From Thermoplasmatota archaeon (GTDB lineage Archaea; Thermoplasmatota; Penumbrarchaeia; Penumbrarchaeales; Penumbrarchaeaceae), in NCBI GenBank assembly GCA_029762535.1, contig JARVGK010000004.1, positions 1-64,000 on the forward strand: 64,000 nucleotides of DNA, given 5' to 3'. Positions within the stretch are counted from its first letter, which is position 1; each line of letters opens with the position of its first letter. Of the stretch, positions 3,107 to 41,301 are shown piece by piece. The notes beneath the pieces are model-generated. The model was not told the origin of the DNA. It did not search any database and saw only the letters and a list, made by a program, of their open reading frames with translations. The position numbers and the translations under genes were made by a program.

Positions 3107-3496
3107 CTTGGGATCTTATCACTAAAAAAAAAGGTAAAAACACTACTTAAATACAGTAAAATAACATATCGAGTATTTTCTCTTCCAAAGTGCGATCCAG
3201 CGGACATACCATTGTAGCTCATCTTATCATACTTCTTTTCCTTGATCGTAGTAGCATTATTACCATATAAAAGGCTTTCCAGAAGGTTGAGGAAAGAAAG
3301 AAAAAACGCATCATCCATCTGTTTCGCAATCATTTTCTTTTTTAGGGAAATGCCCAAACGGGTTACAATCAATTTTTATCGTCTCTTTTCTTGCCGGATC
3401 GAATTTGTTTTCTTCCTTCATAATGATCGGATGAGACAACATCTGATACGTTTTATACATGGCCCCTTATTATCAAAAGGTCGGATCATTGGATCA

Positions 3497-5611: not shown

Positions 5612-5660
5612 CTTGAGACCTGCCGTTTACTATCTTTGAACGTTGGATGTTACTTCAATG

Positions 5661-21018: not shown

Positions 21019-22117
21019 CCTTTAATAAATTCTGGTAGGTTCCATATATCTGTGCGATGATTATTCTTGATTCATATCTTTTGAAAGCTTCTTCTTTTAT
21101 GCTTTTTGACATCTCATAGAACATATCATAATTCTTGAATACGTATTCGATCTTATTCATCAGATCATCGGGATCCTTCTGTTTAACTATGAAACCGTTT
21201 TCCCCGTTCCTTATGACCTCCTTCAAAGCGGCAACATCCGTGGATATGATCAAACAGCCTCCTGCCATGGCCTCCATCACAACAGTTGGGCATCCTTCCG
21301 GATAATAAGATGGATAGAGAAAAATATCGCTATCATTGAATTTTTCTACCTTCTTTTGATCGGGATAGTAACCTAGGTAATTCACCTTTTCTTCAATACC
21401 ATATAACTTGATTTTTTCCTCAAACCTTACTCTGATTTCATCATTAACGAACCAGCCGATGAAATCCATTCTGAAATCATACCCTTTCAGATGAAGTCCA
21501 TGAAGGGCCTCAAGGATCACCAATATCCCCTTCTCCTCCTGCATCCTGCCGACATATAAGAGATTTGGAGTCTTGCTCTTTTTCCTTTTATAACCTGAGA
21601 AGAGATCTCCATCAAAGAAGGTCTTGCTAACCTCGATCTTGGAGAGACCCAAATTCTGAAGCGAATCCTTGAAATCCTCAGCGAGAACGTATAAGGAATC
21701 AGCCTTTGAATATATACAATGAAAAATTATTCTTCTTATTGTGGATTCTTTCAGTTTCTTGTAATATCCTTTATCCCAACCATGGAAGAAGACCAATACT
21801 TTTTTTCTCATGGCTTTTGAGATCAAGATATATATGGAATCCCTCACTATAGGAACTGTGAAGAAAGATGGATTCAGATGCACAATTCTCGAACTTCTAT
21901 CGGTAATTATTTTTCTGATGAATCTAACTAAATCTTTTGGGTATGATAATACATAAGGTATAATTTGCTTAGTGCTCTGTTCTTTTGATATGCCCTGCTT
22001 GAAGTGTTCAATAGCTATATCATCATGAGAATAGTTCTTGAAGAAGATCCTAAAAAAATTGGTAACTCCACCTGGCACTTTCAAGTCCCTGGTCATAATA
22101 AGTGCCTTCGGTTTCAA
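21002..22117 (-). CDS. GT4 glycosyltransferase
   Basis: PGGV, LYVGRMQEEKG, PEGCPTVVMEAMAGG, NGENGFIV. Confidence 0.9.
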   Translation of the reverse strand: MKPKALIMTRDLKVPGGVTNFFRIFFKNYSHDDIAIEHFKQGISKEQSTKQIIPYVLSYPKDLVRFIRKIITDRSSRIVHLNPSFFTVPIVRDSIYILISKAMRKKVLVFFHGWDKGYYKKLKESTIRRIIFHCIYSKADSLYVLAEDFKDSLQNLGLSKIEVSKTFFDGDLFSGYKRKKSKTPNLLYVGRMQEEKGILVILEALHGLHLKGYDFRMDFIGWFVNDEIRVRFEEKIKLYGIEEKVNYLGYYPDQKKVEKFNDSDIFLYPSYYPEGCPTVVMEAMAGGCLIISTDVAALKEVIRNGENGFIVKQKDPDDLMNKIEYVFKNYDMFYEMSKSIKEEAFKRYESRIIIAQIYGTYQNLLKGDLHK

Positions 22118-23286
22118 CGATGATCACCATTACCTAAACATTTTACCAATGCCAGTAAGATCCAGCTGTCTCCCCATCTGGTGTAATCATTGTTGTTTTT
22201 GATAATAGGCCATACTTGATGTCTGGTTCTACCATCTGAGCGTATCATTCTTTTCAGGGTCCAGGATAATACTTTCTCGAACTTATCTCTAACGAACGGG
22301 AACATGGATGAATTGTCCTTTAATGTTATCATTGCCTGGGCCTGATTGTGGATATCTATCGGCCACTTCCTGGGATATCGATAGTATGTTCTGCCCCGAT
22401 CATCGATGGTCTTTATATAGAATCTCAGCCCCTTCTCGATCCTTGGGAGGATCCGTTCATCCTTGTCGATCTCCCAGATGGATCTCAGGCCATCGAGGAT
22501 GAAGCCCTGGTGAAAGTCGAACTGCTTCCTGAACTTGCCTGTAGAGGGATCTATACTGTAATACCACGATCCATCGGCGTTCTGCTTGGATAATGTGAAG
22601 TTCAGAGCCTTTTCTGCAATCTCAAGGATATCATCCTTCTTTAGAACTGTTCCAGCTCTGAAGAGATAACTGGACCCGAGTATGTTGGCGTTATGAACGA
22701 CGTTATTATCGTGAGGTGAATAACTGAAGCATATACCCTCATCGTCTTTGTGGATGTTGAGGTCGTTCATGATGAAATCGGCTATTCCACTTATCGTTCT
22801 CTTCAACTCTGGATTGGCATCGAAATTATAGAGGTCGATCAGAGAATGGCCGATAAAGCTTGTCACAACTATTGAAGGCTCATATCTGGGTATGAACTTG
22901 TGAAGGTCCTGCCATGGAAAATGATAACCCCAACAAGGTCCGGAATAATCCATGTTCTGATTCTCAATGATCCATGAATGTATAAATTCGATCTCTTTTT
23001 CGAGATCTGGAATGATGTCATGATCTTTACCTTTCTTGAGGATCAAAAGGGCTCTGAGCAATAGACCCATAGTCTTCGGGTTCACATCCTTTTTTATCCT
23101 CAGTATTGACCTGAAGTTTATTGGTGAATAGACGAGCAACTGGGTGGATGCGATCCTTATCCATCTGTTCTCGAACGAGGTTATAATGGGACTGTTCAGG
23201 CAGTCATAGGGGTCGTATCCTTTGTAATCGTTTCTTTTGATGTTTTGATAGATCGATCCGATGATCCTCTTTGTATCGTTTTCCAT
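22114..23286 (-). CDS. Uncharacterised (alpha/alpha)6-barrel-like protein of polysaccharide loci
   Basis: GYDPYD.LNSP, NPKTMGL, CWGYHFPWQ, CFSYSP...VHNANILG, QNADGSWYY, DFHQGF, WPIDIH, YTRWGDSW; start moved to ATG 23286. Confidence 0.65.
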   Translation of the reverse strand: MENDTKRIIGSIYQNIKRNDYKGYDPYDCLNSPIITSFENRWIRIASTQLLVYSPINFRSILRIKKDVNPKTMGLLLRALLILKKGKDHDIIPDLEKEIEFIHSWIIENQNMDYSGPCWGYHFPWQDLHKFIPRYEPSIVVTSFIGHSLIDLYNFDANPELKRTISGIADFIMNDLNIHKDDEGICFSYSPHDNNVVHNANILGSSYLFRAGTVLKKDDILEIAEKALNFTLSKQNADGSWYYSIDPSTGKFRKQFDFHQGFILDGLRSIWEIDKDERILPRIEKGLRFYIKTIDDRGRTYYRYPRKWPIDIHNQAQAMITLKDNSSMFPFVRDKFEKVLSWTLKRMIRSDGRTRHQVWPIIKNNNDYTRWGDSWILLALVKCLGNGDHR

Positions 23287-23299
23287 GATAACTACCCAT

Positions 23300-24325
23300 T
23301 CAATCCTCAAGTGCGGATCCCAGCTTTTCAAAGAACTCTATCTGGACCTTCTTGGGATCGTGTCCATGTGTGTCGTTAATGTGCTTTTTTTCAAGTATAT
23401 GATCGATGATCTCATCAACATCCCTTGAATGGACCATCATTCCTTTTTCTATCAGGTCTTGATCTACAGTTAATAATTCTTTGCCAGGAAAGAAGGAAAC
23501 GGCCTTCCTCCCGATTATGGCTCCCTCCCTGGCCATCGTCCCTGATCCAGTTAGGACCCCCATTGAGTAATATATCAGGTCCAGACCATTCAACGGCTTT
23601 GGAGGTATATGGACGTTTTTCCTGCCGCTGATGTTCCAATCGCTCCTGTCCCTGGGCAGGAATACGATGTTTATTCCTTCTTTTTCGAACCGATCCAAGA
23701 GGATTTCGGTTATGCTCTTTTCTTCTTTCACATAGAATGATGCCAATGCCTCAGGCCTTATGACGATATAGTCTTTGAACGGTAGCTTGCTGAGTATATC
23801 TTTATTCGGTATATGACCGGATATGTAAATGTCCTCTTTGTAACCGTCATAGGTCAGGATCCTCGATCGGGAGAAATGCTTCTTGAACCGATGTTTAGTA
23901 CATTTGGGAACTATCAGGATATCGGTTTTCGTCTTCAACCATGATTCTATCTTCTGTATTCTGCCAGAGCCTTTGTTGTATTTGACATCATTATCAAGCA
24001 TTAGAATCGTTTTCTTTCTCCGCATCCATCCAACGGCAACGCTCATGGGATTCTCGAATGATAATGCGGTATCGAACCTCTTCAGATGAAGAGAAAGTTG
24101 TAACGTCCTTATTGCAATGGATGATGTTTTCAAGAAAGCGTTCTCGTAATCCTTGCCTATCGCATCGCCTTTTATTCCAAGATCATTTGCGATGGATAGT
24201 GTCTCGCCCCTGTCTCTCATTGTAACGTTAAGCCGGGCATTTTTGGAGATCCTGTCTATGACCGGTTTGAAGAACAGGGGATGCGAAGGGTTGAGAAGAT
24301 CTATCCAAACGGTTCCATTCATCAT
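23300..24325 (-). CDS. DUF354-family GT-B-fold protein
   Basis: VWIDLLNPSHPLFFKP, YDGYKE, IRPEALASFY, GSGTMAREGAIIG. Confidence 0.85.
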   Translation of the reverse strand: MMNGTVWIDLLNPSHPLFFKPVIDRISKNARLNVTMRDRGETLSIANDLGIKGDAIGKDYENAFLKTSSIAIRTLQLSLHLKRFDTALSFENPMSVAVGWMRRKKTILMLDNDVKYNKGSGRIQKIESWLKTKTDILIVPKCTKHRFKKHFSRSRILTYDGYKEDIYISGHIPNKDILSKLPFKDYIVIRPEALASFYVKEEKSITEILLDRFEKEGINIVFLPRDRSDWNISGRKNVHIPPKPLNGLDLIYYSMGVLTGSGTMAREGAIIGRKAVSFFPGKELLTVDQDLIEKGMMVHSRDVDEIIDHILEKKHINDTHGHDPKKVQIEFFEKLGSALED

Positions 24326-24326
24326 C

Positions 24327-25883
24327 TCATTCCTTCATATACATATCTTTATTATTCTTTATCGATTCCCGATCTATCTTCCCATTTGCTGTAAGCGGCA
24401 TATGATCGATAAAATAGACTCTCTTGGGTATCATGTATTTCTCGAGCCTTTCGGAACAGAATCTGAGAATGTCATCCTCTTTGACCTCTTTTAAACTCTG
24501 TGCAAAGCATATGAACCTGTTACCGAGAATATAATCGGCAATGGGAATGACCACACAGCTTGAGATCCCATCCATTGATGTAATTACGGCTTCAACTTCC
24601 TGTGGGGTCGCTTTCTCACCCCCTATCTTTATTACCTGATCCTTCCTTCCAACAAAGTAGAGATCCCCTTCTTCATCGAACCTGAAGAGATCACCTGTTA
24701 ACAATATCCTTTCACCAGTGATATCGTCTTTGATGATAGTTCTCTCTGTCTCTATGGTATCGTTCCAGTAACCGATCATGATATGCGGTCCTTTCACAGC
24801 TAGTTCGCCGATCTTTCCTGGTTCATGAATAGGTTTTCTGTCATCGTCTAGTAGAATGACATCGGTGTTCGGGATTGCTTTACCGACCGATGTCGGCTTT
24901 TCCATTATCTTACTTGGATCGAGGAACGATACCCTCTTGCATTCGGTCAATCCATACATAGAATAGATAGAAACGCCAGGAAACATCTGGATTAGCTTTT
25001 CGATGGTCTTTGGAGACAATGCTTGTGCGGTGTTCGTTATGTATCGTAGAGAGGATAGATCGTAATTTGTTATGTCTCCAAGTCTTAGTAAAATCTCTGC
25101 CATCGATGGAACGATCGGGAATCCGGTCACTCTCTCTTTCTGGATCCTCTCGAGTAGTTGATTGAAGAAAGTGAAGGACTTTTCAAGGATTAGCGTTCCA
25201 CCACTTTTAATGGACATTATCGCCTGATACAGACCATAATCGAAGGATAAAGGTATGGCGTTTAGTATAACATCATTCTCATCGTTGTTGAGATATTCGA
25301 TTATCGAGTTCGATGCGGCGTCGATATTTGCATGGCTCAGAGTCACTCCTTTTGGTTCTCCGGTGGACCCGGATGTGAACATGATCAGTGCGACATCTCT
25401 TTCATTCGGGGACTTCATCTCGCGTAGGTTATCCGGACTTTTACATAGATCAGCGAATATATGATATTCGTTCGTTATCTCTTTATCTATTAAGCCATCT
25501 CCAAGACCAATTATGATCTGCCTATCGGATCCCTTCACGCTATCATTTACCATATCTCGGTTCAGATCATCCGCCATTATACATTTTGGATCGCATTTGT
25601 CGATAATTGTTTTGAGTTTTTCCTGCTTTATTTGGGGGTTGACTGGAACGAATATTGCCCCCATCTTCGAGGCTGTAAATAATGATATAACGGTTTCTGG
25701 TTTGTTGCCGGTCATCACAACGACGCGATCTCCGCCTCTTATGCCTATTCTTTCCATATTGGATGATAGATCGTCCGTTATCCTATCCAATTCGTCATAG
25801 GTATATGTCTGATCTCCGAACTTGATCGCGATCTTATCCCTATATCGATGAGCGGATTTCGTGAGGTATTCGCTGAGTATCAT
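24327..25883 (-). CDS. Class I adenylate-forming enzyme (stand-alone A domain / acyl-carrier ligase)
   Basis: A3 FTSGSTGEPKG, A4 PLSFDYG, A5 SMYGLTE, A7 TGDL, A8 GRKDQVIKIGG, A10 PLTANGKIDR; start moved to ATG 25883 (GGTG SD). Confidence 0.9.
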   Translation of the reverse strand: MILSEYLTKSAHRYRDKIAIKFGDQTYTYDELDRITDDLSSNMERIGIRGGDRVVVMTGNKPETVISLFTASKMGAIFVPVNPQIKQEKLKTIIDKCDPKCIMADDLNRDMVNDSVKGSDRQIIIGLGDGLIDKEITNEYHIFADLCKSPDNLREMKSPNERDVALIMFTSGSTGEPKGVTLSHANIDAASNSIIEYLNNDENDVILNAIPLSFDYGLYQAIMSIKSGGTLILEKSFTFFNQLLERIQKERVTGFPIVPSMAEILLRLGDITNYDLSSLRYITNTAQALSPKTIEKLIQMFPGVSIYSMYGLTECKRVSFLDPSKIMEKPTSVGKAIPNTDVILLDDDRKPIHEPGKIGELAVKGPHIMIGYWNDTIETERTIIKDDITGERILLTGDLFRFDEEGDLYFVGRKDQVIKIGGEKATPQEVEAVITSMDGISSCVVIPIADYILGNRFICFAQSLKEVKEDDILRFCSERLEKYMIPKRVYFIDHMPLTANGKIDRESIKNNKDMYMKE

Positions 25884-25896
25884 GGAATACACCGTA

Positions 25897-26256
25897 TCAG
25901 CATATGGAAACTGCAACGGCAACGGCCATATCTTTGATATGTGAAATGGAAGCCTCGATCCTCTGTATTTTCATTTCGGATGCGATCCTGGCCACATCTC
26001 CTGAGAGAGTGACTTCGATCCTATCCCCTTCGGTCTTGACCGTACCGATCTCCCTCCAGTCCGGAGACCTTTCTTCGGATATCCCCAAGGACTTGTAAAC
26101 CGCTTCCTTCAAGGCGAATCTGGCAGCAAAATGCAAAATATCGTCGTTCTTTGATGAGCAATAACTAATCTCTCCTTCTGTGAATATCCTGGAGAGATCT
26201 CTTATTTTACCGAATGATTCCACATCAACGAGATCGATCCCTATGCCCTTTATCAT
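25897..26256 (-). CDS. acpS: Holo-[acyl-carrier-protein] synthase (AcpS-type phosphopantetheinyl transferase)
   Basis: 119 aa; GIGIDLV, IFTEGE..Y, FAARFALKEAVYKSLG, SISH. Confidence 0.92.
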   Translation of the reverse strand: MIKGIGIDLVDVESFGKIRDLSRIFTEGEISYCSSKNDDILHFAARFALKEAVYKSLGISEERSPDWREIGTVKTEGDRIEVTLSGDVARIASEMKIQRIEASISHIKDMAVAVAVSIC

Positions 26257-28067
26257 AATTTATGCACCTTCGATCCCCTGATCAGTATCCTTCCATCGCC
26301 CTGATCGTATATGGTGTTGTTGATATCATCGAAGATATTCTCCTGGATCCCCCAGTAATGCATATTTCCTTTGATCTTATCATTATCTATTATCAGGTCG
26401 GTCCTTAATGTGTAATTTTCATCTCTTAAGGATCCGGGCGCTTCCCTGTACATTCTCATTTTCTCGGGTACTTGCAGGCTTGATGAGGCGACCGGATAGA
26501 AAGATCTGAATGATACGAAAACGGTTTGATTCCCAAGGGAGAAATCCTCGATGAACTCCCCGGGAATTATCGATCCGTTATCCTCGATATAACCGAAACC
26601 GCTGATTGTCGTATTTACTGAATAATTGAGGTTGAAAAGAATGGGTCCTGTTATCATCATCGCGATTATGATTATCATGAACCGGCTGTTTTTGAACATT
26701 CTTCCGATATATTGTGGAGTGTTCACGAACATTACCTGAACCGCTCTCTGGCCAAGGATCGCATAGTTGAAGAATCCTCCTGCCATGAAAGCAAGTGAAC
26801 CTCCGAAGAGGTAGATGTCGAAGAAGTTAATATGTTTCTTGGAGACTTTGATAAGACTGATGGTGATGAGGGCGACAAATAAGAATAAAATAATTATATT
26901 GACATATCTCAGTAACAGGTGGATCTCCCCCGGAACTAGGTCATATAATGGATAGTTCTCAAAGCTTGCCAGCCCAACTTTTGTTTTACTCCCAAGGAAA
27001 TATGATACTATGAACCACGTCTCACCTCTCTCATCGCGTGTATATAGAAGATCCTCTATGAATTCGAATCTGAAGAACCTTGTTTTGTAGCCATAAATGT
27101 AAATGGCGATCAAAAGTATCAATGAAATATCTTTCTTTCCACTTATCCCGATAAATGATTCGATTTTATTCCGGGTAAAATATTGGATCGAGATGAAATG
27201 TTGTTTCACATCCTTGGCAATGTTGAATAATCGAAATAAAACATGTCCTATTGAATCACTTGTCCTTAAGAATTCCTTGATCTTTTCCAATTTATCTGAA
27301 GTTGATATTTCGGTTGTCTTTTTGATGATCACGGCCATGAGGAAGAAGAAGAACATGAAAGGATGTGAGTAAACGCAAAGAATGAAGAATACTATTGTTA
27401 AATAGTAGTATATTACATTCTTTGTTTCCTGGAGTCTTACATAGGACCCTATGGTAAGTAACATGAATATCAATCCCACGAATTGCGGGATGAATTGAGA
27501 ATTGATAAAGAAAAAGGTCAGAATGATGTAAGCAGCCGGATAGATGATGAAACTCGCCGGATATCTCCTTGAGAACTTGACCATTGTCAATGGCAGTACC
27601 AGTGGGATCGCAAGTAGGTAAACGAAGAATCCTAAATTTGTTGTCCCGTAGTATGATAACCCGAGAACATCCATGATAACCCTACCCGAAGTGAAATATA
27701 TCGGGCATGTGAAATATGTGAAAAGGGCCGGATCTATGTAGATATTGCGTGATAGATGTCGCATGAACATCGATGTAGCGCCGATATCTGTCTGCTGCGG
27801 TACTATGATGAAGAACAGGTTGAAAGCGTAAAAGACAAAAAAGAACAGAACTGAAAGTAGCATCACTGACACTTTTGATCTCACCTTTAAAGCTATGAAA
27901 ACGATCACGCCGGAATATAAAAGGAGCAGGATCCAGAAAGACATTGGTACGCTTTCTATTATAGATCTTCCTCTGTCGATACTTGCGGGAAAAGCGAATA
28001 GGATTATATCGACCAGAATAACAAGGAGGATCATTATGACGAAAAATAGGTATTTGTTGATCTTCAT
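26253..28067 (-). CDS. Polytopic membrane protein (about 12 TM), possible GT-C / Wzy-like polymerase or transferase
   Basis: 604 aa with many hydrophobic helices, QQTD loop after early TMs, FIPQ..GL and YSHP motifs, C-terminal soluble domain; glycan-locus context. Confidence 0.5.
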   Translation of the reverse strand: MKINKYLFFVIMILLVILVDIILFAFPASIDRGRSIIESVPMSFWILLLLYSGVIVFIALKVRSKVSVMLLSVLFFFVFYAFNLFFIIVPQQTDIGATSMFMRHLSRNIYIDPALFTYFTCPIYFTSGRVIMDVLGLSYYGTTNLGFFVYLLAIPLVLPLTMVKFSRRYPASFIIYPAAYIILTFFFINSQFIPQFVGLIFMLLTIGSYVRLQETKNVIYYYLTIVFFILCVYSHPFMFFFFLMAVIIKKTTEISTSDKLEKIKEFLRTSDSIGHVLFRLFNIAKDVKQHFISIQYFTRNKIESFIGISGKKDISLILLIAIYIYGYKTRFFRFEFIEDLLYTRDERGETWFIVSYFLGSKTKVGLASFENYPLYDLVPGEIHLLLRYVNIIILFLFVALITISLIKVSKKHINFFDIYLFGGSLAFMAGGFFNYAILGQRAVQVMFVNTPQYIGRMFKNSRFMIIIIAMMITGPILFNLNYSVNTTISGFGYIEDNGSIIPGEFIEDFSLGNQTVFVSFRSFYPVASSSLQVPEKMRMYREAPGSLRDENYTLRTDLIIDNDKIKGNMHYWGIQENIFDDINNTIYDQGDGRILIRGSKVHKL

Positions 28068-28080
28068 GATAGAACACCAT

Positions 28081-29280
28081 TTATCTTTTTATCGAACTCT
28101 TGTAATGTGCCTTGAGGTCGGATGCCATCTTCTCATAGTTTCTATGATCCAACACCCATTCCCTTCCTTTCATACCCATGTGCCTTGAATTATCGATATC
28201 GTTCATAAACTTTGTGATTGCATTGATGATCTCCGGTAAGGAATATGGAGGGGCGATGCCTCCTCCGCTTTGTTCTATCACTTTTTGTTGGTCTCCGATC
28301 TCTTTGTTGGCCACGACCGGTACTCCTCTTGATAGGTATTCCACGACCTTGGTGGGTGATGATACGCGATATGCCAGTATCGGTGGTAGTATCGAAAGGC
28401 CCAGATCGCTATTATCTATTAATGTTGTGACCTCTTCAAATGGAACTTCATCGATCAGCTTCACTTGGTTCTTTAGTCCAAGCTCTTTAATTCTTCGTAT
28501 CAACTTCTCACTGTAACTCTTTCTGAATACCTTACCTACGATCATTAGTTCTACTGGTACATCACTTTTCTTTATAAGACCATTTATAATTTCCAGAAGG
28601 AAGTCTATCCTTCTTACAGGGGTTATCTGACCCAGGTAAATCATTCTGAATCTTTTATCATGATCGTATTTATACAGGATCCTTTTTTCCATCATGGACC
28701 TTGCCGGGCATAATGGTAAAGGATATATCTTATCTGTTGGAACGCCCCTCTTTGTATAATATTTGCCCATTTCTTCCGATATTGGGTGGAATATATCCGC
28801 TCTTTTGATCAACCATGCTAATATCGGTTTTTTTAAATATGCCTTTGCCGTCTTGAATAATGTCAAGATGGATGGCATTGATTTTAACTCGTTCAACTCC
28901 ATGTCAAAGAACAATGACGATAGATAATATGCGAATTTTTTACCATGTGCTTTCGCAAGAAAGAAACCGATTATCCCTTCCAAAATACCGTCATTGCATA
29001 ATACGATGTCTATATTGGGTTCACTCTGTAAAATCTTTGAAGCAGTTTTGTATTTTTTATATACGGCCAACCTTGATATTACATCGCCGATATTCCCTTT
29101 GAGGGGGGTTGGCTTAATAAGATGGATCTCATTGTTTTTCAATGTAATTGTTTTATTCGCATCACCGTATGCTATCCAGTGTACCTTATCATCACCGGAG
29201 GCGAAATATCCCATGAACAGCTGATTGAGTCTGACTCTTCTGAATGGATATTTCTCCTTCGGCAGTAATAAAATATCCAT
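28081..29280 (-). CDS. GT4 glycosyltransferase
   Basis: IYLGQITPVRRIDFLL, SSPTKVVEYLSRGVPVVA. Confidence 0.85.
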   Translation of the reverse strand: MDILLLPKEKYPFRRVRLNQLFMGYFASGDDKVHWIAYGDANKTITLKNNEIHLIKPTPLKGNIGDVISRLAVYKKYKTASKILQSEPNIDIVLCNDGILEGIIGFFLAKAHGKKFAYYLSSLFFDMELNELKSMPSILTLFKTAKAYLKKPILAWLIKRADIFHPISEEMGKYYTKRGVPTDKIYPLPLCPARSMMEKRILYKYDHDKRFRMIYLGQITPVRRIDFLLEIINGLIKKSDVPVELMIVGKVFRKSYSEKLIRRIKELGLKNQVKLIDEVPFEEVTTLIDNSDLGLSILPPILAYRVSSPTKVVEYLSRGVPVVANKEIGDQQKVIEQSGGGIAPPYSLPEIINAITKFMNDIDNSRHMGMKGREWVLDHRNYEKMASDLKAHYKSSIKR

Positions 29281-29293
29281 TCGATATTCCTCA

Positions 29294-30508
29294 TTATTTT
29301 TTCATTATGTCATAGATCAATTTGTTAAAACCGAAAATGACTTTGTATCGAATGTTCGATCCGATCTTATTATCGGATCTTAAATCCTTCCCTTCATCCG
29401 TTAGAATTCTTAGGATCTCTTTAAAACACCTCTTAACAAGGTCTTTCGATCCATCCATACCATATTTGAGATGCATGTGGAATTTTGGAGATACTAGAGT
29501 GCCCATTTCATTGATAAGTCCGGTTGATATCAGATTTGGTGCTATTATCTTCACCGGTAATAAAAATCTATGGGTCCATTGATAATCAGCATCACATTCC
29601 TTTGATAATGATCTGTTGATTTTCAGCTGGAGATACGATCTCTTCTTCTTATCATGTATAAATGGTGGAATGTTGTAAGGCCGGGGTTCGAAACCTTGAA
29701 ACGTGAAGGCATGGAAATCCATGTAGAATATCGGTTTTATCCTTTTACAGTAATTCCATATATGGTGGCTTTCGGGACATTCTTTTTTCGTGTTTCCAAA
29801 GAATTTCCAGTAAAAGTTTATCCCGTTTGTATTCGATCCCTGTGTATTATGAAAATAACCATCCGGATTGACTATCGGGATGAGTGCGATGTTGAAATGA
29901 TCCCGAGATCCGTCCTTTAAATTCATTTCAGATAATACCTCAGCGATGGCTTCCAAGGCAATGAGATCGTTCTCCGGAGGATGGAAACCTGACAGGAATA
30001 GCAGATACGGCGATCCTTTATCTTTTACATACTCAAATACCTTTATTTCCCTCCCTTCAACGGTCTTTCCTATTGAGATCTCATTTGCGCCTCCCTTCAA
30101 AGCCTTTTCCCGAATGGATTCCAATATCTCTTCATGGTCCATGGGTATGTAGTTGCTGATGAATGTCGAACCGGGGGCGATCCTCAATTCGAATCGATAT
30201 TTTCCGGGGAGGAGCATCCTTCCATCGATCTCCTCTTTGATATATTTCTCCTGATCTTCGTTCCTTATCCAGAGCCATCCCAAATCCTGATTCATATCTT
30301 CTTTATCATTACATCCTATGCAGAATTTTACATTAACGGGAACATCACCATCATTTCTGGCCATGAAGTGAAAATGTAGATTGTAATCGTGATCCTCGAT
30401 GTATCCTATTGTTATCGGATCCTTCTTTAATTCTATGAAAGCAACATTTTTTTCGACCCTTCCGGATCCGAGCATGGATCCCTTGAAATCGCCGTCTATG
30501 GTTATCAT
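29294..30508 (-). CDS. M14-family zinc carboxypeptidase/deacylase-like protein
   Basis: IGKTVEGREI, GFHPPE (HxxE), IPIVNPDG, YMDFH; N-terminal IDGDFKGSMLG resembles cytosolic carboxypeptidases. Confidence 0.75.
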   Translation of the reverse strand: MITIDGDFKGSMLGSGRVEKNVAFIELKKDPITIGYIEDHDYNLHFHFMARNDGDVPVNVKFCIGCNDKEDMNQDLGWLWIRNEDQEKYIKEEIDGRMLLPGKYRFELRIAPGSTFISNYIPMDHEEILESIREKALKGGANEISIGKTVEGREIKVFEYVKDKGSPYLLFLSGFHPPENDLIALEAIAEVLSEMNLKDGSRDHFNIALIPIVNPDGYFHNTQGSNTNGINFYWKFFGNTKKECPESHHIWNYCKRIKPIFYMDFHAFTFQGFEPRPYNIPPFIHDKKKRSYLQLKINRSLSKECDADYQWTHRFLLPVKIIAPNLISTGLINEMGTLVSPKFHMHLKYGMDGSKDLVKRCFKEILRILTDEGKDLRSDNKIGSNIRYKVIFGFNKLIYDIMKK

Positions 30509-30513
30509 GGATA

Positions 30514-31794
30514 TCAGATCGCCTTAATATCGATAACTGAGTTCTTCTTTCTGAGTAGAAATACTGTCAAGCCGCTCATTATGACAACTGTTGTCAAACC
30601 CACTATCATCGTGGAGTATGCTATTCCGATAAGCCCGAACCATTGAAGGAACAGATAATTCAACCCGATGTTCACAACCGGGGGTATCCAGTATAGATAC
30701 AGGAGTTTCAGCTCGTTACCTGTCGCCTGGAGCGCATTGTAGAAAGGCAGCTCGAAATATTTGAAGGCGAGGTAGAATATCAGCACGGAGAAAATCGGCG
30801 CGGCTTTAAGATATTCATCGGAGAATATGATGCCTATTATTGGCTCCGATGCCAATGACAGGACTGCCGCTCCCAGGATAACGACCGCGCCCATCAGGGT
30901 CCCCCATTGGAACAACCTCTTGACCTGAATGGTATCCTGGCTCTGGAATGTCTTGATGAACATCGGGAACGTGGCGATGAACAGAAGGTTCCTCAGGATC
31001 ACGCCCGGACCCATTAGATTGACCGCGATGCTGTATATACCCACATCCTCGTAAGGCCTCAAATTGGATATCATGAGTATGTCTATGGATGTCGCCAGAT
31101 GACCAAGGAATAACAGTAAGCTGAAGATTATCACGGGTTTTATCAGGCTCCATCTCGTATCCAGCATCATCCTGAACGTTATTCTTGCGAATCTCCTCGA
31201 TATCCTGATGTTCAAGATCAGGGAAATGGCGAGGGTCAGAATACTTGCTATCAGCAGGATCGTCAGGCCAAGGTTGAAAACCACTACTATTATCGTGAAT
31301 ACCAGGTAGATCAGACGATGGATAACACCTATTAAAGCATGATACTGCATCCTCTCGTGTACCTGATAGATTATCATGTAAAATCCTTCTAATGAACTTA
31401 GAAGGAGAGTTATGGAATAAATTGCGATCAATATCTTGGTGTATGGGTCGTAATTTACGAATAGTAAACCGATCAAAGACAATCCGATCGATATTGATCC
31501 GACCAGTACCCTCAAACCGACGGTGTTCGAGAGTATATCATCGAGCTTCTCCTCGTTCTTGACGCCTTCCCTGATTAGAACCTTGTTGATCTGGGGAAGG
31601 GTAAAGAACAGGAATAATGAGATGTACGATGTGACGGTGGAATAGATACCGTAATCTCGCACCCCGAGATATCGGGTGATCAAAATGAGCCCGATCATGG
31701 CCATTATCTGGGCAATAACATTTCCAACAACAAGATAAGAGAAATTCTTCATGGCCAGCTTGATCCTGCTGCCAAGGGTCATGTCGGCCTTCAT
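30514..31794 (-). CDS. Wzx/MATE-like oligosaccharide flippase
   Basis: TRYLGVRDYGIYS, IDILMI...VGIYSIA, NIGLNYL...FGLIGIAYST; about 12 TM. Confidence 0.9.
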   Translation of the reverse strand: MKADMTLGSRIKLAMKNFSYLVVGNVIAQIMAMIGLILITRYLGVRDYGIYSTVTSYISLFLFFTLPQINKVLIREGVKNEEKLDDILSNTVGLRVLVGSISIGLSLIGLLFVNYDPYTKILIAIYSITLLLSSLEGFYMIIYQVHERMQYHALIGVIHRLIYLVFTIIVVVFNLGLTILLIASILTLAISLILNIRISRRFARITFRMMLDTRWSLIKPVIIFSLLLFLGHLATSIDILMISNLRPYEDVGIYSIAVNLMGPGVILRNLLFIATFPMFIKTFQSQDTIQVKRLFQWGTLMGAVVILGAAVLSLASEPIIGIIFSDEYLKAAPIFSVLIFYLAFKYFELPFYNALQATGNELKLLYLYWIPPVVNIGLNYLFLQWFGLIGIAYSTMIVGLTTVVIMSGLTVFLLRKKNSVIDIKAI

Positions 31795-31847
31795 CGGATC
31801 AACTCAATGATAAAAGGAACGGATAATTTCTCATGATAAGGTCATCA

Positions 31848-32699
31848 TCATTGATCTCTACAGGCTTTGATGAACCTCATCGATCCATTGTATGATAAGA
31901 ATTCAACATGGGAAAAGATGTCGCTTCTCTTGAACAGCCTCCCCACCAAATTCTCCTGACCTTCTCCGAACTCAAAAGCAAGGGATCCCCCTTCCTTCAA
32001 GATAGATGAAGATTCATTGATCAATCTGTTCAAGATATCGATCCCGAATGGGCCTCCGTCAAGGGCTATGTGCGGTTCATGGTCCTTGATCTGGGGATCC
32101 ATCCTCTCGATGGAGGATCTTGGAATATAAGGCGGATTGCACACTATCATATCAATCTTGGAGGATAGGCCCATTTCCCTTATCGGAGAAAGGAGATCCC
32201 CCTCAATGATATGTACCCTATCATCAAGACCGTATCTTTGCACGTTGAGTTTTGCAACTTCCAGGGCATCGGGGGATATGTCTATAGCATAGACCTCCGC
32301 GTCTGGGTTCTCCAGGGCTATTGAGATCGCGATATTGCCGCAGCCGGTCCCTACATCGACTATGATTGGTCGATAATTTTTTAACGCGATAGAAGCGATA
32401 TGATCCCTGGCCAGATCGACCAGTAAGAATGTTTCCGGTGTGGGGATCAGTGTATGATTATTGACGATGTATCTTCTTCCCATGAACACCGCTTCCCCTA
32501 ATATGTATTCGGGCGGTGTGTTCTCGTATCTCTTCCGTAAGTAATCGTATTCCAGCATGCGGTTGAGCACATCCTCCGGATCCAAATCCGTTATCTTTCC
32601 ATCCAGAAGATGATCGAGCAATCGCATGAACTCGGCGAATTGGTCCTTGCCATCGATCCCGTCCATGTGATCGAATACCTTCTTCCACCCTTCGTTCAA
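31848..32699 (-). CDS. Bacterial-type PrmC/HemK-like N5-glutamine (amide) methyltransferase
   Basis: PEYILG...F.G, LIPTPET, VDVGTGCGNIAI, CNPPYI, EPHIALDGG; N-terminal domain divergent. Confidence 0.8.
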   Translation of the reverse strand: MNEGWKKVFDHMDGIDGKDQFAEFMRLLDHLLDGKITDLDPEDVLNRMLEYDYLRKRYENTPPEYILGEAVFMGRRYIVNNHTLIPTPETFLLVDLARDHIASIALKNYRPIIVDVGTGCGNIAISIALENPDAEVYAIDISPDALEVAKLNVQRYGLDDRVHIIEGDLLSPIREMGLSSKIDMIVCNPPYIPRSSIERMDPQIKDHEPHIALDGGPFGIDILNRLINESSSILKEGGSLAFEFGEGQENLVGRLFKRSDIFSHVEFLSYNGSMRFIKACRDQ

Positions 32700-32704
32700 G
32701 AATA

Positions 32705-33694
32705 TCAGACCTCCCTTGAAGGAGGCAGATCGATGACCCCAAATAGTTCTGGACGCATGTGAAGGTATGATGTACTCCTCTTCTTCTGCTCGATGTCCTT
32801 GTATATCCTGAGGACCTGACCAAGGCTAAGTCCCGTTGTCTTCGAACATTCATCAAGTCCGACATCGTTGTTGTAGCAATAGAGCATGAGGTCCATAGTC
32901 CTCAATGGTATGGAGAAATAGAACTCCTCTTGTGTTTGCTCCATGGGGAAAGTATCGGTCGTTGGGGTCCTTTTTATGATCTCATCCGGTATCTCGTAAT
33001 GCTCCGCCAGCTGATATACCTGGCTTTTGTAAAGATGGGCTATGGGTTTGAGATCGGCGGCACCATCTCCGTTCTTGACGAAGAACCCGAGCTCATACTC
33101 CAGGCGATTGGGTGTTCCCACGACCGCATAGTTCAGCCGATCCGCGTGATGGTATTCCATCATCTTTCTCACGCGCTGCTTGAAATTGGATGCGGCTATA
33201 ACGCCGAGGTAACTGGAAGAGGTCATGCGTTTATTTACAGTACTTCCGTCAGGTAGTTCGACGACGATCTGGGAGATGCTTATCCTATCGGATGAGAGGA
33301 TGTTGGGCAGTATCACCTTGCACTTCCAGCTGTCCTCATATTCGGGTATCACCTCACGAATGGACATCCCCCGTCTGGTGTAGCATCCCGATGCAACAAG
33401 GATGGATGTTATATCCTCAACGATCGTCTCGATCCCGAGATGGTCCGCGATGATTCGGCCCAATCTGTTGGTATCCTCTTTTCCCTCCCTCTCGGGCATA
33501 AGGATGCCGAATACCCGTCCGACCCCAAGGGCCTTTGCGCATATCTCAGCACAGACCGAGCTGTCAAGTCCGCCGGAAAGTCCGATGACCACGCCCTTCT
33601 TCCTCATCCTTGACAGAACAGAATCCGAAATAGCTCTCTCAAGCCTCTCTGCCTCTTTATCGCAGTCCATGAAGAGCGGTTCGTGATCGTTCAT
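32705..33694 (-). CDS. NH3-dependent NAD+ synthetase (NadE)-like protein, paralogue 2
   Basis: GLSGGLDSS PP-loop, NFKQRVRK, GTPNRLE...GFFVKNGDG..D..PIAHLYKSQV. Confidence 0.85.
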   Translation of the reverse strand: MNDHEPLFMDCDKEAERLERAISDSVLSRMRKKGVVIGLSGGLDSSVCAEICAKALGVGRVFGILMPEREGKEDTNRLGRIIADHLGIETIVEDITSILVASGCYTRRGMSIREVIPEYEDSWKCKVILPNILSSDRISISQIVVELPDGSTVNKRMTSSSYLGVIAASNFKQRVRKMMEYHHADRLNYAVVGTPNRLEYELGFFVKNGDGAADLKPIAHLYKSQVYQLAEHYEIPDEIIKRTPTTDTFPMEQTQEEFYFSIPLRTMDLMLYCYNNDVGLDECSKTTGLSLGQVLRIYKDIEQKKRSTSYLHMRPELFGVIDLPPSREV

Positions 33695-33701
33695 GTCCTC
33701 T

Positions 33702-34673
33702 CTAATCTCCTTCGAACATATTAGGAGGGAGCATCCTCAGATGCCGGGATGCTGTATGCTTCCTCTCGAAATCCGTAAAAGCCCTCTTCACCTGCTCCGT
33801 TCCAAGTCCCATTATCGAGGCTGTTCCTCGCTCGTCCATGTCATTCTCCCAGGCATAGAGGAGCATATCGAGCTTCTCGTACGGCATCCTGAAGAAGAAA
33901 GCCTCGTCGGAAACATGGGAGTTGAAAGTGTCCGGGGACGGTGGACGGTCGATAATACCCTGATGAACGCCAAGATGCCGTGACAGGGAATAGACCTGTG
34001 TTTTGTAAAGATGGGCAAGCGGCTCGATATCCACCCCCCCGTCCCCGTATTTGACGAAATAACCCTGTATCATCTCGGTCCTGTTCGTGGTCCCGCACAC
34101 GGCATGGTTCATGGACTCGGCGTGATAGTACAGGTGCATCATCCTCGTCCTCTGCTTGGTATCCGTTGCGGCCAGTATTACTTGGGAGTCTTTCCTTCTG
34201 AGCCTGGTCGAGAATACGATGTCATCCCCTTCCATAATGTCTATGGAAAAGAAGTTGATGGAGTCCTTCTCAAGGATATTCTCGGGCAGGTAAAGCCTGA
34301 TCCTGTGGTTTGATGAGTATGCCGGATATATTTTTCTGATGATCTCATCCCGTTTTTCGTATGTGCCGAACGCCTCAAGAACGCTTGTGATATCCTCGAC
34401 AACATACTCTATCCCAAGGGATTTGGCATGCTCTCTGGCAAGTCTTTCGCTAATGGGATTCGAATCTTTTTCAGGCAGTATAACGCCAAACACATTCTTG
34501 CTACCAAGGGCTTTAACGCACAGGGTAAGGGTCAAAGCGGAATCGATGCCACCGCTAAGTCCTACGATATAGCCCTCCCTCTTGTGTTCGTGTAGGTATT
34601 CCTTGAGGAAATGACAGATGCGATCCGCCTCTTTTTCCGGATCGATATTCATCACCTCTTTGTTTAAAGGCAT
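33702..34673 (-). CDS. NH3-dependent NAD+ synthetase (NadE)-like protein, paralogue 1
   Basis: GLSGGIDSA PP-loop, TKQRTRM, GTTNRTE...GYFVKYGDGGVDIEPLAHLYKTQV. Confidence 0.85.
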   Translation of the reverse strand: MPLNKEVMNIDPEKEADRICHFLKEYLHEHKREGYIVGLSGGIDSALTLTLCVKALGSKNVFGVILPEKDSNPISERLAREHAKSLGIEYVVEDITSVLEAFGTYEKRDEIIRKIYPAYSSNHRIRLYLPENILEKDSINFFSIDIMEGDDIVFSTRLRRKDSQVILAATDTKQRTRMMHLYYHAESMNHAVCGTTNRTEMIQGYFVKYGDGGVDIEPLAHLYKTQVYSLSRHLGVHQGIIDRPPSPDTFNSHVSDEAFFFRMPYEKLDMLLYAWENDMDERGTASIMGLGTEQVKRAFTDFERKHTASRHLRMLPPNMFEGD

Positions 34674-34691
34674 ATGATATCACCTTGAGGA

Positions 34692-34955
34692 TCAAAGCCC
34701 CTTCTTTCTTCGGACGAATTTTTCGATATTGTCGATGGTATCCAGGTTCTCCGGGATTATTTCATCATTTTCTATGACCATTTCGAACTTTTCTTCCAGG
34801 AATTCGATGACCTCGAGTATTCCCGTGGAATCGACGATCCCGGTGTCCATTAAAGATAGGCCGGGATCCAGTTCCTTGAACTTGTCGGAAAGATAGAAAT
34901 TCGATGCAATGAACGTTCTTACTGTCTTGACAATATCATTGGATCCATCTGTCAT
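34692..34955 (-). CDS. Acyl/aminoacyl carrier protein (ACP, DltC-like)
   Basis: 87 aa, acidic; L..TGIVDSTGILEVIEFLEEKF with phosphopantetheine Ser in DS; PENLDTIDNI. Confidence 0.9.
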   Translation of the reverse strand: MTDGSNDIVKTVRTFIASNFYLSDKFKELDPGLSLMDTGIVDSTGILEVIEFLEEKFEMVIENDEIIPENLDTIDNIEKFVRRKKGL

Positions 34956-35040
34956 CTATACCACTCTAGGAACTATCGGAAAAAGGGTTGGGAATATATT
35001 AACTGTTCCTTACCAGTTATGATCTGATATAATCGCTTGG

Positions 35041-35064
35041 CTGTGCCTAGGTTTGGAGGCACAG
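35041..35064. other. 8-bp hairpin (CTGTGCCT-N8-AGGCACAG) between small ORF and ACP
   Basis: Perfect inverted repeat seen directly. Confidence 0.45.
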
Positions 35065-35087
35065 TTGTCCTACCGGCTCATATCTCA

Positions 35088-35258
35088 TCAATACCGGTTT
35101 GGGACGGTCTTGGGGGGATATCTTACGAGGAGGATCTGCCTGAAATCGGTCCTCTCCGTTCGGACCTCGGTGACGCAATCCCTATCCAAGCTGGATATAA
35201 GGCTGTTTTTGTCGGTCTCGAGAAGATATGCGCCCTTCTCCTTGGTCTGTCGGCTCAT
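35088..35258 (-). CDS. Putative 56-aa small protein (below ORF-track cutoff)
   Basis: MSRQTKEKGAYLLETDKNSLISSLDRDCVTEVRTERTDFRQILLVRYPPKTVPNRY; GTGGTG SD-like site, upstream AAAAAGTATAAGTA TATA-like box, downstream hairpin. Confidence 0.4.
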   Translation of the reverse strand: MSRQTKEKGAYLLETDKNSLISSLDRDCVTEVRTERTDFRQILLVRYPPKTVPNRY

Positions 35259-35411
35259 GATGCACCACTATCTCCGTTAGGGGAGGATGGTCTTAAGCCC
35301 TGGAATTACTTATACTTTTTGCCGATTTCGGTTACAGTTTTTTATCTACATGGTTGTTGCTATTTAAATAGGGTTGTCTAATCATGTACAATTTATTACA
35401 ATATTGACATT

Positions 35412-37564: not shown

Positions 37565-38716
37565 TCACCTGTTATATAATTTTAAATATACGTTGTTTAG
37601 TAGGCTGCCCCTATCGTCCCTGAAGCTTTGAATGGTTCTCCAATCGGTTATGGACCCTTCGAACTCATCTCTGCTCATTCCAATTTGACATAGGAACCAA
37701 TCAAGGTTTGGCGGGTCCTTATTCTCATCGTTGTAGTTTTTCTCATACAGCATCGCTTCGTCCCTCTTCATCGATCCCAGTCGGATCAATGAACTGTTCT
37801 TGCATGTGGCATCCGATAATCCTTTTGCCTTTTTTGATTGAGCGTACGAGGCTATCTTGCTTGCCTTGCAGTCCATATGTTCTACCTGATCCGAAGGCTC
37901 TGTCCACCCCATCTCTTTCTTTATGGTACCGAGTATCTCATCGTAGGACGGCCCAAGATGATCGTATATGCTCACATGCCTCGGAGTGGTCGGATCGGGA
38001 ATCCTCAATAGAGCTGTTGAAAGATGTACGATCCTTTTCAGGTCCCATTTTACCGTGAACTGTTTCATGGCGTCGACATTGAACGATAACTTCTCATTCT
38101 CGACCACTCTTGAAAAGAAGGCTGCATCACCGTTTTGGAAGAGTTCCGGAACTCTGGCAAGATAAGAATATCTTGCTCCCGTACCTTTTATGATCAAGGG
38201 AACGTCGAACATATCAGCTCCCATCTTCGATACTATCTCGATCCCTCTCATGCATGGAGGACAGAACGTTCCGGTTTTTCTTAAGAAAAGGCCGTATAGT
38301 TCCATCATCTCCTTTGGATTCGGACCATAGATAAGATGATCCGATCCGGTTTTATTAATGGCATTTCTTATGTTCTGTTTTGCATGGTCAGAAAGTAGGC
38401 CGTTGTCAAAAGTTATGGATAGGCTTTTCATGCCGTATACCTTGTCTGCAAGATAGAGGCAATAAACGCTATCCTTTCCTCCGCTCAAAGGCACGACGCA
38501 ATCGTAAGGTCTCTTTTTCTTCTTAGCCCATAGAACAAGTTCATCGAGTTTTTTTTTTCTTTCTTCTTTCTCATTATCTAACTTTGTGAGCAGTTTCTCA
38601 TAATAATTGCAATTATTGCATACACCTCTATCGTCCAACTTTACGCTTGGAAGGGTTGTGGGCATCACACACTTGTGACATCTAATGAAATTTTTTTCTT
38701 TATTTGTATCAACCAT
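37565..38716 (-). CDS. N-acetyl-sugar amidotransferase (WbpG/PseA/WbuX family)
   Basis: CHKCVMP...GVCNNC, YDCVVPLSGGKDS, FCPPC, EMGW...HMDC, SLIRLG.M.RDEA; start moved to ATG 38716. Confidence 0.85.
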   Translation of the reverse strand: MVDTNKEKNFIRCHKCVMPTTLPSVKLDDRGVCNNCNYYEKLLTKLDNEKEERKKKLDELVLWAKKKKRPYDCVVPLSGGKDSVYCLYLADKVYGMKSLSITFDNGLLSDHAKQNIRNAINKTGSDHLIYGPNPKEMMELYGLFLRKTGTFCPPCMRGIEIVSKMGADMFDVPLIIKGTGARYSYLARVPELFQNGDAAFFSRVVENEKLSFNVDAMKQFTVKWDLKRIVHLSTALLRIPDPTTPRHVSIYDHLGPSYDEILGTIKKEMGWTEPSDQVEHMDCKASKIASYAQSKKAKGLSDATCKNSSLIRLGSMKRDEAMLYEKNYNDENKDPPNLDWFLCQIGMSRDEFEGSITDWRTIQSFRDDRGSLLNNVYLKLYNR

Positions 38717-38754
38717 TCCCCTGCCTCCTGATATAAAATGGTGATGAATTTGGA

Positions 38755-40032
38755 TCATAGGCTCCAGTAATGGATCCCCGTTCCGGAAAAATCTTTGCGG
38801 TCCAGGACATATTTCACATCTATCAGGACGCCGTTTTTGTTGCGGAACATCTTCTTGAATCCTTCTATCCCAAGATCCAGATATTCCTTATGCGGGACCG
38901 CCAGGATCACCGCGTCGGCTTTGGGAAGGTCCTCGAAACAAGTAAGGCCGAAACCGTACTCCTCGTTCGCATCCCTCTCTGAAGCGCAGGGGTCCGAGAT
39001 CGACACATCAACGCCGAATTCCAGAAGCTCCCTGACGATATCTACCACCCTGGAGTTCCTCACGTCCGGAACGTTCTCCTTGAATGTGATCCCCAGGACG
39101 TTCACCCTTGCCCCGTTCACGTTCTTTCCGGCCTTGATCAATTGTTTTATGGTCTGCTCCGCGACGTAGAAGCCCATGTCATCGTTGATCTTCCTGCCCG
39201 CAAGGATCACCTGGGGATGATAGCCCAGTTCCTGCGCCTTGTAGGTGAGATAATACGGGTCCACCCCGATGCAGTGGCCTCCGACGAGCCCCGGAGAGAA
39301 TTTCAGGAAGTTCCATTTCGTGCCGGCCGCCTTCAACACCTCTTTGGTATCTATCCCCATCCTCGAGAAGATGAGGGACAACTCGTTCATGAAAGCGATG
39401 TTGAGATCCCTCTGGGTGTTCTCTATGACCTTGGCCGCCTCAGCCACCCTGATAGAAGGTGCTCTGTAAACCCCCGCCTCTATGACGGATCCGTAAACCT
39501 CCGCTATGATCTCGAGGGTCTCATCGTCCTGTCCGGCGACTATCTTGAGGATCTTCTCAACGGTATGCTCCCGATCCCCGGGGTTGATCCTCTCCGGGGA
39601 GTATCCGAGCTTTAGATCGATGCCGGACCTAAGACCGCTGACCCTCTCCAAAATTGGTCCGCACACCTCTTCGGTAACGCCTGGATAGACCGTGCTTTCA
39701 AAGACGACGATCGATCCCTTACTGATGTTCCTTCCGACGATCTCCGAGGCCGCTATTACGGGTGTGAGGTCCGGAAGCTTGTTCCTGTTGATGGGCGTTG
39801 GAACGGCCACGATGAACATCTCATTGTCCCTGAGATCGGATTCGGATGATGTGAACGTGATACTGCTGCTTTTCACGGCCTCGTCGCCGATCTCGTTCGT
39901 CGGATCGACCCCTCTCTTGTAGAGATCTATCTTTTCCGGGCTGATGTCGAATCCTGTGACCTTGTGCTTTTTTGATAGAGCATAGGCCAGTGGTAGGCCT
40001 ACGTAACCCATTCCTATGACCGCAATATCCAT
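38755..40032 (-). CDS. UDP-N-acetyl-hexosamine 6-dehydrogenase (TviB/WbpO family)
   Basis: GMGYVGLP, ESTVYPGVTEEVC, GYSPERINPGD, AEAAKVIENTQRDLNIAFMNE, AAGTKWNF..FSPGLVGGHCIGVDPYYL. Confidence 0.9.
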   Translation of the reverse strand: MDIAVIGMGYVGLPLAYALSKKHKVTGFDISPEKIDLYKRGVDPTNEIGDEAVKSSSITFTSSESDLRDNEMFIVAVPTPINRNKLPDLTPVIAASEIVGRNISKGSIVVFESTVYPGVTEEVCGPILERVSGLRSGIDLKLGYSPERINPGDREHTVEKILKIVAGQDDETLEIIAEVYGSVIEAGVYRAPSIRVAEAAKVIENTQRDLNIAFMNELSLIFSRMGIDTKEVLKAAGTKWNFLKFSPGLVGGHCIGVDPYYLTYKAQELGYHPQVILAGRKINDDMGFYVAEQTIKQLIKAGKNVNGARVNVLGITFKENVPDVRNSRVVDIVRELLEFGVDVSISDPCASERDANEEYGFGLTCFEDLPKADAVILAVPHKEYLDLGIEGFKKMFRNKNGVLIDVKYVLDRKDFSGTGIHYWSL

Positions 40033-40898: not shown

Positions 40899-41301
40899 CG
40901 GGAGATCCTCCAAATATCTGGCGCTTTCGCTGGGACCGACAGGCTTTCTTCACCGGATCCTTCATGGGGATCCTCCGTTCACACGGTCGGTCGGTCGCAT
41001 ATCTGGGTGTTATTTTTTTTCGGTCTAGGCTCCTGAAGCCCCGCCAGTTGGCGGAGATGTTTTTGATTACTTAAACGATTCTACAAGGTAACGACCATAC
41101 AAGAATAATGGGCCCGATCTCGGATCCATGCCTTGATGAGGATAGAGGGTCCGTAGCGTGTATTTTTATCTACGACGATGTATCGATGAGAGATATTACC
41201 GTCAAACCGTACTTATTAAAATTCATAATGGGTTTTATTGTTGTTCCATAAGGATTTTTTTAAAAGAAGTATTATTATCAACCTTTGTTTTAATCACCTC
41301 C

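Follow-up and report, generated by a model that had tools for sequence, protein, structure and literature searches.

A carrier-protein cassette with two NadE-like enzymes in a glycan operon of a Thermoplasmatota archaeon, and its putative role in surface-glycan tailoring

The window analyzed here is a 64,000-nucleotide stretch (positions 1 to 64,000, forward strand) of contig JARVGK010000004.1 from a Thermoplasmatota archaeon (GenBank assembly GCA_029762535.1). Ten genes on its minus strand, between positions 24327 and 34955, encode in order an acyl carrier protein (ACP), two NadE-like enzymes, a PrmC-like methyltransferase, a flippase, an M14 protein, a GT4 glycosyltransferase, a membrane protein, an AcpS-type phosphopantetheinyl transferase (PPTase), and an adenylating ligase. 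The ACP, the NadE-like enzymes, the AcpS-type protein, and the ligase are core members of a cassette, and the methyltransferase is an optional one. A preliminary description of the window had listed this tightly packed run; its open reading frames (ORFs), their places and order, and their families were confirmed, the membrane protein being without a family. The run was also said to continue into a DUF354 gene and three GT4 genes. Both are there, but a 405-amino-acid (aa) protein with a weak GH88 match (22114–23331) sits between them. From the ACP gene (34955) to the last GT4 gene (18736), intergenic gaps range from −4 to 53 nucleotides (nt), an operon-like packing. The start of the ligase gene was corrected, ATG at 25883 (519 aa) being more likely than TTG at 25922. 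By its sequence the host is an archaeon; genes for RNA polymerase D, S11/S4/S13, and the proteasome lie at 50–60 kb of the window. The genome is 93% complete. GC content is 33–50% in the glycan region versus 53% for the genome. Among sequencing runs, the best matches come from metagenomes of mud and sediment, with no RNA dataset among the matched runs.

The ACP (34692–34955, 87 aa) is a stand-alone carrier protein whose phosphopantetheine site, Ser43, lies in the motif DSTG. Pfam has no match for it, but ACP models in NCBIfam do match, as do solved peptidyl carriers (2MY5, 9e-09). Ser43 is invariant among 21 homologues. The AcpS-type PPTase (25897–26256; ACPS family, 8e-14) is a core member in the archaeal versions of the cassette. 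That the archaeon would have no other ACP machinery did not hold, since contig C17 (G, C, and L are our labels for genomes, contigs, and loci) encodes a type I polyketide synthase/fatty acid synthase (PKS/FAS) containing four ACP domains and an AcpS domain of its own. This PKS/FAS-like protein (L104:819-17261, G000) has 3308 aa and comprises KS, AT, four ACP, KR, DH, and C-terminal AcpS domains. Next after it is a 2142-aa single-chain acetyl-CoA carboxylase; a search for the central domain of this enzyme matched 15 of 41 kin genomes and none of the 14 controls. C17 otherwise looks archaeal, and the pair is possibly more surprising than the cassette itself.

The ligase (24327–25883; AMP-binding, 8e-83) is a stand-alone adenylating enzyme of the VinN type. 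Over the substrate pocket (residues ~190–380) its best solved match is VinN (E = 8.5e-30), followed by a match at 1.8e-12; DltA gives 1e-10. The VinN pocket residues D230/F231/S299/K330/R331 (PMC11253843) align to ligase D228/Y229/T298/K329/R330, where ligase residues are in the 531-aa numbering and VinN positions were counted along the alignment with a 16-residue offset. The alignment is ungapped at the pocket, the ligase has the shortened loop, and its pocket motifs are FDYG, NTA, and TECKR. VinN accepts 3-methylaspartate or Asp, which it binds as a beta-amino acid, and charges a stand-alone ACP (PMC11253843), and the D/F/S/K/R residues have been used elsewhere to assign Asp to BolO (PMC7756342). 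An orthologue of the ligase in Sinorhizobium meliloti acylates its cognate ACP in vivo and shows no long-chain acyl-CoA ligase action (PMC7232532). The preliminary description had taken the enzyme to be of the DltA type; the pocket is instead VinN-like, and the score against the DltA models is 217 bits, with cut-offs of 476 and 560. The best NCBIfam match is TIGR03098, at 395 bits under a cut-off of 592.

We are fairly confident from these residues that the ligase would load Asp onto the ACP. A match to glutamate mutase, a source of 3-methylaspartate, was found neither in the genome nor in the control genomes. Pyridoxal phosphate-dependent decarboxylases of the TIGR03099/LysA type, which would play the role of VinO, gave no match in the genome and matched in 13 of 14 controls. 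With a VinN-type pocket and no decarboxylase of this type found, the likeliest predicted cargo is L-Asp bound through its beta-carboxyl and kept intact as isoaspartyl-ACP. A single carboxylate of such a cargo then stays free for a NadE-like enzyme to act on. Closthioamide was considered as a model for the ligase and rejected; there CtaI loads hydroxybenzoate, and the Asp step is carried out by an ATP-grasp enzyme. A second ligase type, with the pocket FY/HY..G, QAGG, EATR, occurs beside the same NadE/AsnB/ACP genes in loci that come mainly from spirochaetes (L018, L022–L024, L026, L027, L042, L043, and L046), and likely loads a different acid.

NadE1 (33702–34673) and NadE2 (32705–33694) are NadE-like amidoligases that both pass the PRK00876 model (393 and 464 bits, cut-off 313). 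They share the fold of the NH3-dependent NAD synthetases (2E18, 1NSY) and retain the PP-loop SGGxDS and the adenylation residues. The cassette copies differ from those enzymes by an insertion of ~55 residues and in a C-terminal motif, HKR, which we take from Bacillus subtilis NadE to be the deamido-NAD contact. HKR is present in all 11 canonical sequences and in none from cassettes, where it is replaced by HL in NadE1 and YL in NadE2. The insertion region measures 63–66 residues in the cassette enzymes versus 7–12 in the canonical ones. It was modelled as two helices and three strands on the NadE fold (pLDDT 91.5; Foldseek E of 1e-18 against NadE structures). A quick tree of 68 sequences with SH-aLRT supports contains a NadE1 clade ("DTKQR", 20 sequences, support 100) and a NadE2 clade ("NFKQR", 36 sequences, support 99), with bacteria in both. 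A third, canonical NadE is encoded on contig C4; it clusters with NadEs from ten kin genomes (support 100), all with HKR and without the insertion. With a canonical NadE elsewhere, HKR missing, the insertion present, and the clades separate, neither cassette NadE is, by its sequence features, the housekeeping NAD synthase. A recent duplication of the pair was rejected as well; the two are 39% identical to each other versus 54–58% to different bacterial relatives, and fall in separate clades. A survey of the NADS family makes no mention of neighbors of the cassette NadE clade.

NadE is a dimer with its acceptor site at the interface, and enzymes of the family use ammonia. A predicted complex of the NadE1 dimer with the ACP scored 0.39, with 0.00 for the best control; the runs agreed in at least 89% of contacts, and the partner pLDDT was at least 78. 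The mark applied to such complexes was reached by 58 of 80 solved pairs and 2 of 110 mismatched pairs. Only 7 of the 80 solved pairs, and both of those mismatched pairs, reached it with scores of 0.60 or lower, so the modelled docking weakly suggests an ACP–NadE1 contact.

The PrmC/HemK-like protein (31848–32699) is a putative NPPY amide N-methyltransferase. It passes TIGR03534 (210.7 versus 199.1 bits), has the SAM motif and NPPY, and belongs to a discrete, cassette-linked clade. PrmC_N (PF17827) has no match in it or in its ~96 closest homologues and appears only in more distant ones. The gene occurs in 3 of 41 kin genomes, adjoining a cassette NadE in each, and on a Nitrospiraceae contig it adjoins AsnB-ACP-ligase; one homologue that was checked lies outside any cassette. 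PrmC methylates a carboxamide nitrogen, so an enzyme of this kind fits an amide made by NadE. A HemK2-like gene on contig C58, scoring below its cut-off, is the likelier aRF1 methylase. Neither the NadE genes nor the PrmC-like gene are thus sole housekeeping copies, in keeping with the preliminary description.

Cassette genes recur elsewhere, as the preliminary description had anticipated. Among 31 bacterial NadE2 loci, ACP is present in 24, a ligase in 22 (13 VinN-type, 9 other), AsnB in 25, AcpS in 7, and the PrmC-like gene in 2; a second intact NadE gene is absent from all of them. ACP, ligase, and NadE genes occur together in many other genomes as well, so their association is not due to chance. 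The cassette is very widespread, with more than 6,600 proteins matching NadE1 at E ≤ 1e-60 and, in a separate search, 116 plasmid records. Within the phylum, 6 of 301 genomes have a PRK00876 match, five of these being members of this family; the Methanosarcina acetivorans control matches PRK00876 and PF00550, scored as presence only. Tandem ACP-NadE1-NadE2 genes occur in six loci (this genome, G006, L062, L063, L090, and L091), which are kin and not independent, and the PrmC-like gene is next in five. In G008 the same genes are split over two contigs, with NadE1 and NadE2 on different ones. The whole gene order is repeated only in L063, where a hexapeptide acyltransferase takes the PrmC position. 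NadE1-clade loci L064, L066, and L068 pair the enzyme with a WbuX-like protein and a GNAT; this clade also includes other archaea (L065, G142). An AsnB-type glutamine amidotransferase gave only short PP-loop matches in the genome and matched in 11 of 14 controls. The cassette was most likely, if putatively, acquired from bacteria.

The closest known system is the asnB-smb20651 (ACP)-smb20650 (ligase)-nadE1 operon on pSymB of S. meliloti 1021. Its ACP is 37% identical to the archaeal one, its ligase 41% with the same pocket, and its NadE 52% identical to NadE2. That operon has AsnB and the archaeal cassette does not; the latter adds a second NadE of the other clade, the PrmC-like methyltransferase, and a dedicated AcpS, resides in an archaeal host, and has its genes spread through a glycan operon. 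It is therefore a variant of the S. meliloti cassette that lacks one defining feature, AsnB. In the beta-aminoacyl-ACP loading systems VinN/VinL (vicenistatin), FlvN, and BolO/BolC, a stand-alone adenylating enzyme with the D/F/S/K/R pocket likewise serves a stand-alone ACP. Here, however, no VinO-type decarboxylase was found, the locus has no PKS or nonribosomal peptide synthetase (NRPS) acceptor, and the partners are amidoligases and a methyltransferase. The DltA/DltC/DltB/DltD system for D-alanylation of teichoic acids shares the logic of an adenylated amino acid, a dedicated carrier, and a surface-polymer destination; the archaeal ligase pocket differs, and the predicted route modifies the cargo while it is carrier-bound. 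No Pfam match to the DltB MBOAT family or to DltD was found among the locus proteins. The exosortase-A-associated pair TIGR03098/TIGR03099 is represented by the sub-cut-off ligase match without its decarboxylase. Judged from these comparisons, the cassette would be VinN/VinL-type loading applied to glycan tailoring, and not a Dlt system. Its core is already known; the new element is a form with two NadEs and a methyltransferase but no AsnB, conserved within a single archaeal family. No characterized archaeal example, nor any ACP/NadE/AsnB glycan system, was found in the searchable literature, which excludes most subscription papers.

A supply of amino-uronic acid acceptors can be predicted in principle. 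A WbuX-like PP-loop amidotransferase and a TviB/WbpA-like UDP-GlcNAc 6-dehydrogenase (37565–40032, minus strand) are a likely source of uronic-acid sugars, and the window encodes both UDP-GlcNAc and UDP-ManNAc dehydrogenases. Contig C69 (L110:1-2556, G000) carries a 3-dehydrogenase, an aminotransferase, and an acetyltransferase resembling WbpB/WbpE/WbpD of 2,3-diamino-uronic acid synthesis. Aspart-4-yl amino sugars occur in Providencia and aspartyl-Fuc4N in Treponema (PMC10609480), and an N-acylated, C6-amidated 2,3-diaminoglucuronic acid is present in the methanogen Methanoculleus (PMC11407970). A nucleotide-activated amino sugar is at least as likely an acceptor as the lipid-linked glycan before flipping that had been suggested earlier. 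The WbuX-like amidotransferase (37565–38758) scores 194 bits (cut-off 203), has an N-terminal CxxC, lacks adjacent HisH/HisF-like genes, and shares 25% identity with the DUF7411 proteins that partner NadE1-clade cassettes.

With moderate confidence, we propose that the cassette provides a surface glycan with an acyl group derived from aspartate, which is amidated, N-methylated, and put on an amino sugar, the second NadE replacing AsnB. AcpS would convert the ACP to the holo form at Ser43, a step well supported by its family. The ligase is predicted from its pocket to adenylate the beta-carboxyl of L-Asp and form isoaspartyl-S-ACP, as VinN does on VinL. One NadE would then adenylate the free alpha-carboxylate of the bound cargo and amidate it with ammonia to isoasparaginyl-ACP, and the PrmC-like enzyme would methylate the carboxamide nitrogen. 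The thioester-bound group might finally pass to the free amine of an amino sugar, such as UDP-3-amino-GlcNAcA made by the WbpA/B/E-like genes; this is the step we infer most weakly. The earlier proposal that both NadEs amidate one cargo does not fit isoaspartyl-ACP, which has a single free carboxylate; for two NadEs to act, they would have to form a heterodimer or one of them would have to use a second substrate. Most likely the second NadE stands in for the AsnB of bacterial cassettes, amidating a second carboxylate such as the C6 of a uronic acid. The GT4 enzymes and the flippase would build and export the decorated glycan. In its most specific form, which we offer tentatively, the proposal is of a stable, glutamine-independent line in a sediment-archaeal lineage, with NadEs acting on ACP-bound isoaspartate and a UDP-uronic acid and a PrmC-derived enzyme yielding N-methyl-isoasparaginyl surface glycans. 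To our knowledge, this group has not yet been described on any glycan.

Several observations weigh against this proposal. No ACP-to-sugar transferase was identified within 24327–34955; for this reason, and because the flippase, M14, GT4, and membrane protein genes vary between relatives, the run cannot be called the self-contained module it was first taken for. The amino-sugar genes are on a contig other than the cassette's, and the PrmC-like gene is not at L063. In earlier S. meliloti work the ACP was reportedly fatty-acylated in E. coli. Nine of the 22 bacterial ligases beside NadE2-clade genes have another pocket, so NadE is not tied to aspartate everywhere. In G006, G013, and G001 (86–90% complete) a PRK00876 NadE is present and the VinN-type ligase was not found; conversely, G011, G005, and G023, of one genus, have the VinN-type ligase without an adjacent NadE (L086, L087, and L088). 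These ligase-only loci are possibly a decaying cassette. In G023 a solitary ACP sits at the end of a contig.

The missing transferase would be no obstacle if a NadE-like enzyme adenylated a uronic-acid carboxylate and linked this to the alpha-amine of Asp-ACP, with the remaining carboxyl then capped by the second NadE and the methyltransferase, by analogy with the threonine amides on methanococcal glycans. A separate acyltransferase is then unneeded, uronic-acid dehydrogenases flank the locus, archaeal amino-acid amides of uronic acids exist (PMC11407970), and the NadE insertion could enlarge the nucleophile site. We nevertheless regard such an amide ligation as doubtful, since NadE-family enzymes are known with ammonia, a PrmC-like partner implies a primary carboxamide, and the ACP would require a release step for which no thioesterase was seen. 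That the two NadEs instead form an obligate heterodimer carrying out a single amidation, with AsnB not replaced, would suit the interface acceptor site and the tandem genes in six loci. Many genomes, however, have only one of the two clades (NadE2 alongside AsnB in bacteria, NadE1 alongside WbuX-like and GNAT genes in L064, L066, and L068), so each can work without the other; with the split of the pair in G008, this makes an obligate heterodimer quite unlikely.

The product may also not be a glycan substituent at all. VinN-type systems supply natural-product pathways, the genome encodes a PKS/FAS, and cassette loci L064 and L065 lie outside glycan clusters, as would be expected if the product were a small molecule or the head group of a lipid (such as an N-methyl-aspartimide or an amino-lipid) and the cassette lay in glycan loci only by habit. 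This is unlikely, because glycosyltransferase, flippase, or export genes surround most of the loci examined, the PKS lies on a different contig, and the decarboxylase search was negative. Still less is expected of a view in which the genes are redundant or decaying transfers (spare NAD synthetases, a release-factor methylase, an acyl-CoA ligase) without joint function. It agrees with the database names and the patchy, partial occurrence in kin. It is very unlikely in light of the intact reading frames, the order conserved in six loci, the clade-specific loss of HKR, the VinN-type pocket, and the invariant ACP serine.

Cassette genes are routinely annotated as NAD synthase, release-factor methyltransferase, and acyl-CoA ligase. 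Solving their function would correct many annotations and would define carrier-protein-dependent glycan tailoring. The archaeal version is a compact test case: all its proteins are soluble, it has its own PPTase and a specific predicted cargo (L-Asp), and it has no glutaminase. It also lets the bacterial role of AsnB be probed by asking which NadE replaces it.

The best, weakly inferred candidate for the transferase is a hexapeptide-repeat acyltransferase at 2453–3106 (minus strand), picked by orthology as a possible displaced member acting as N-acetylase or transferase. Its orthologues follow the NadE/PrmC genes in four relatives (40–46% identity, E 1e-47 to 1e-59), with other hexapeptide proteins at 1e-16 or weaker. 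The GNATs at 577–1500 and 41158–42051 were rejected for this role because they have no homologues in related loci. The polytopic membrane protein (26253–28067, 604 aa) belongs to an archaeal family without Pfam entry; its structural model (pLDDT 50) points weakly to the GT-C fold (best E 4e-3), and MBOAT gave no match. A likeness to PglB/AftA was rejected, the matches not being significant and the model poor.

Among the variable neighbors, the Wzx-type flippase (Polysacc_synt, 30514–31794) and the GT4 glycosyltransferase (28081–29280) belong to the glycan locus and are not fixed members of the cassette. The M14 zinc-carboxypeptidase-like protein (29294–30508; weak Peptidase_M14, 7e-07) has the zinc ligands HPPE and DFH and, apart from this window, was seen beside the cassette in L063 alone. 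It reads INFYWKF at the site of the carboxylate-binding motif, for which we assume a consensus of the DLNRNF type, and its specificity may be altered. Upstream of the ACP gene is a 456-nt gap (34956–35411). An AT-rich, TATA-like stretch in it near 35000 is a probable promoter, and relatives carry insertions at the corresponding site, after a GT2 pair. A sigma-70 promoter scan is not applicable to this archaeal host.

Beyond the GT4 genes are two large surface proteins (8708–14515 and 14529–18467). The glycan locus continues past them with FemAB/GNAT, sulfotransferase, hexapeptide acyltransferase, bi-domain oxidoreductase, and WecC-like genes (577–6908). A second glycan block (41158–46765) contains two ATP-grasp proteins, one of the sugar-transfer type (PF14397) and one RimK-like, together with a GNAT, a GT4, and another flippase; it may provide further amide-forming enzymes for glycan decoration.

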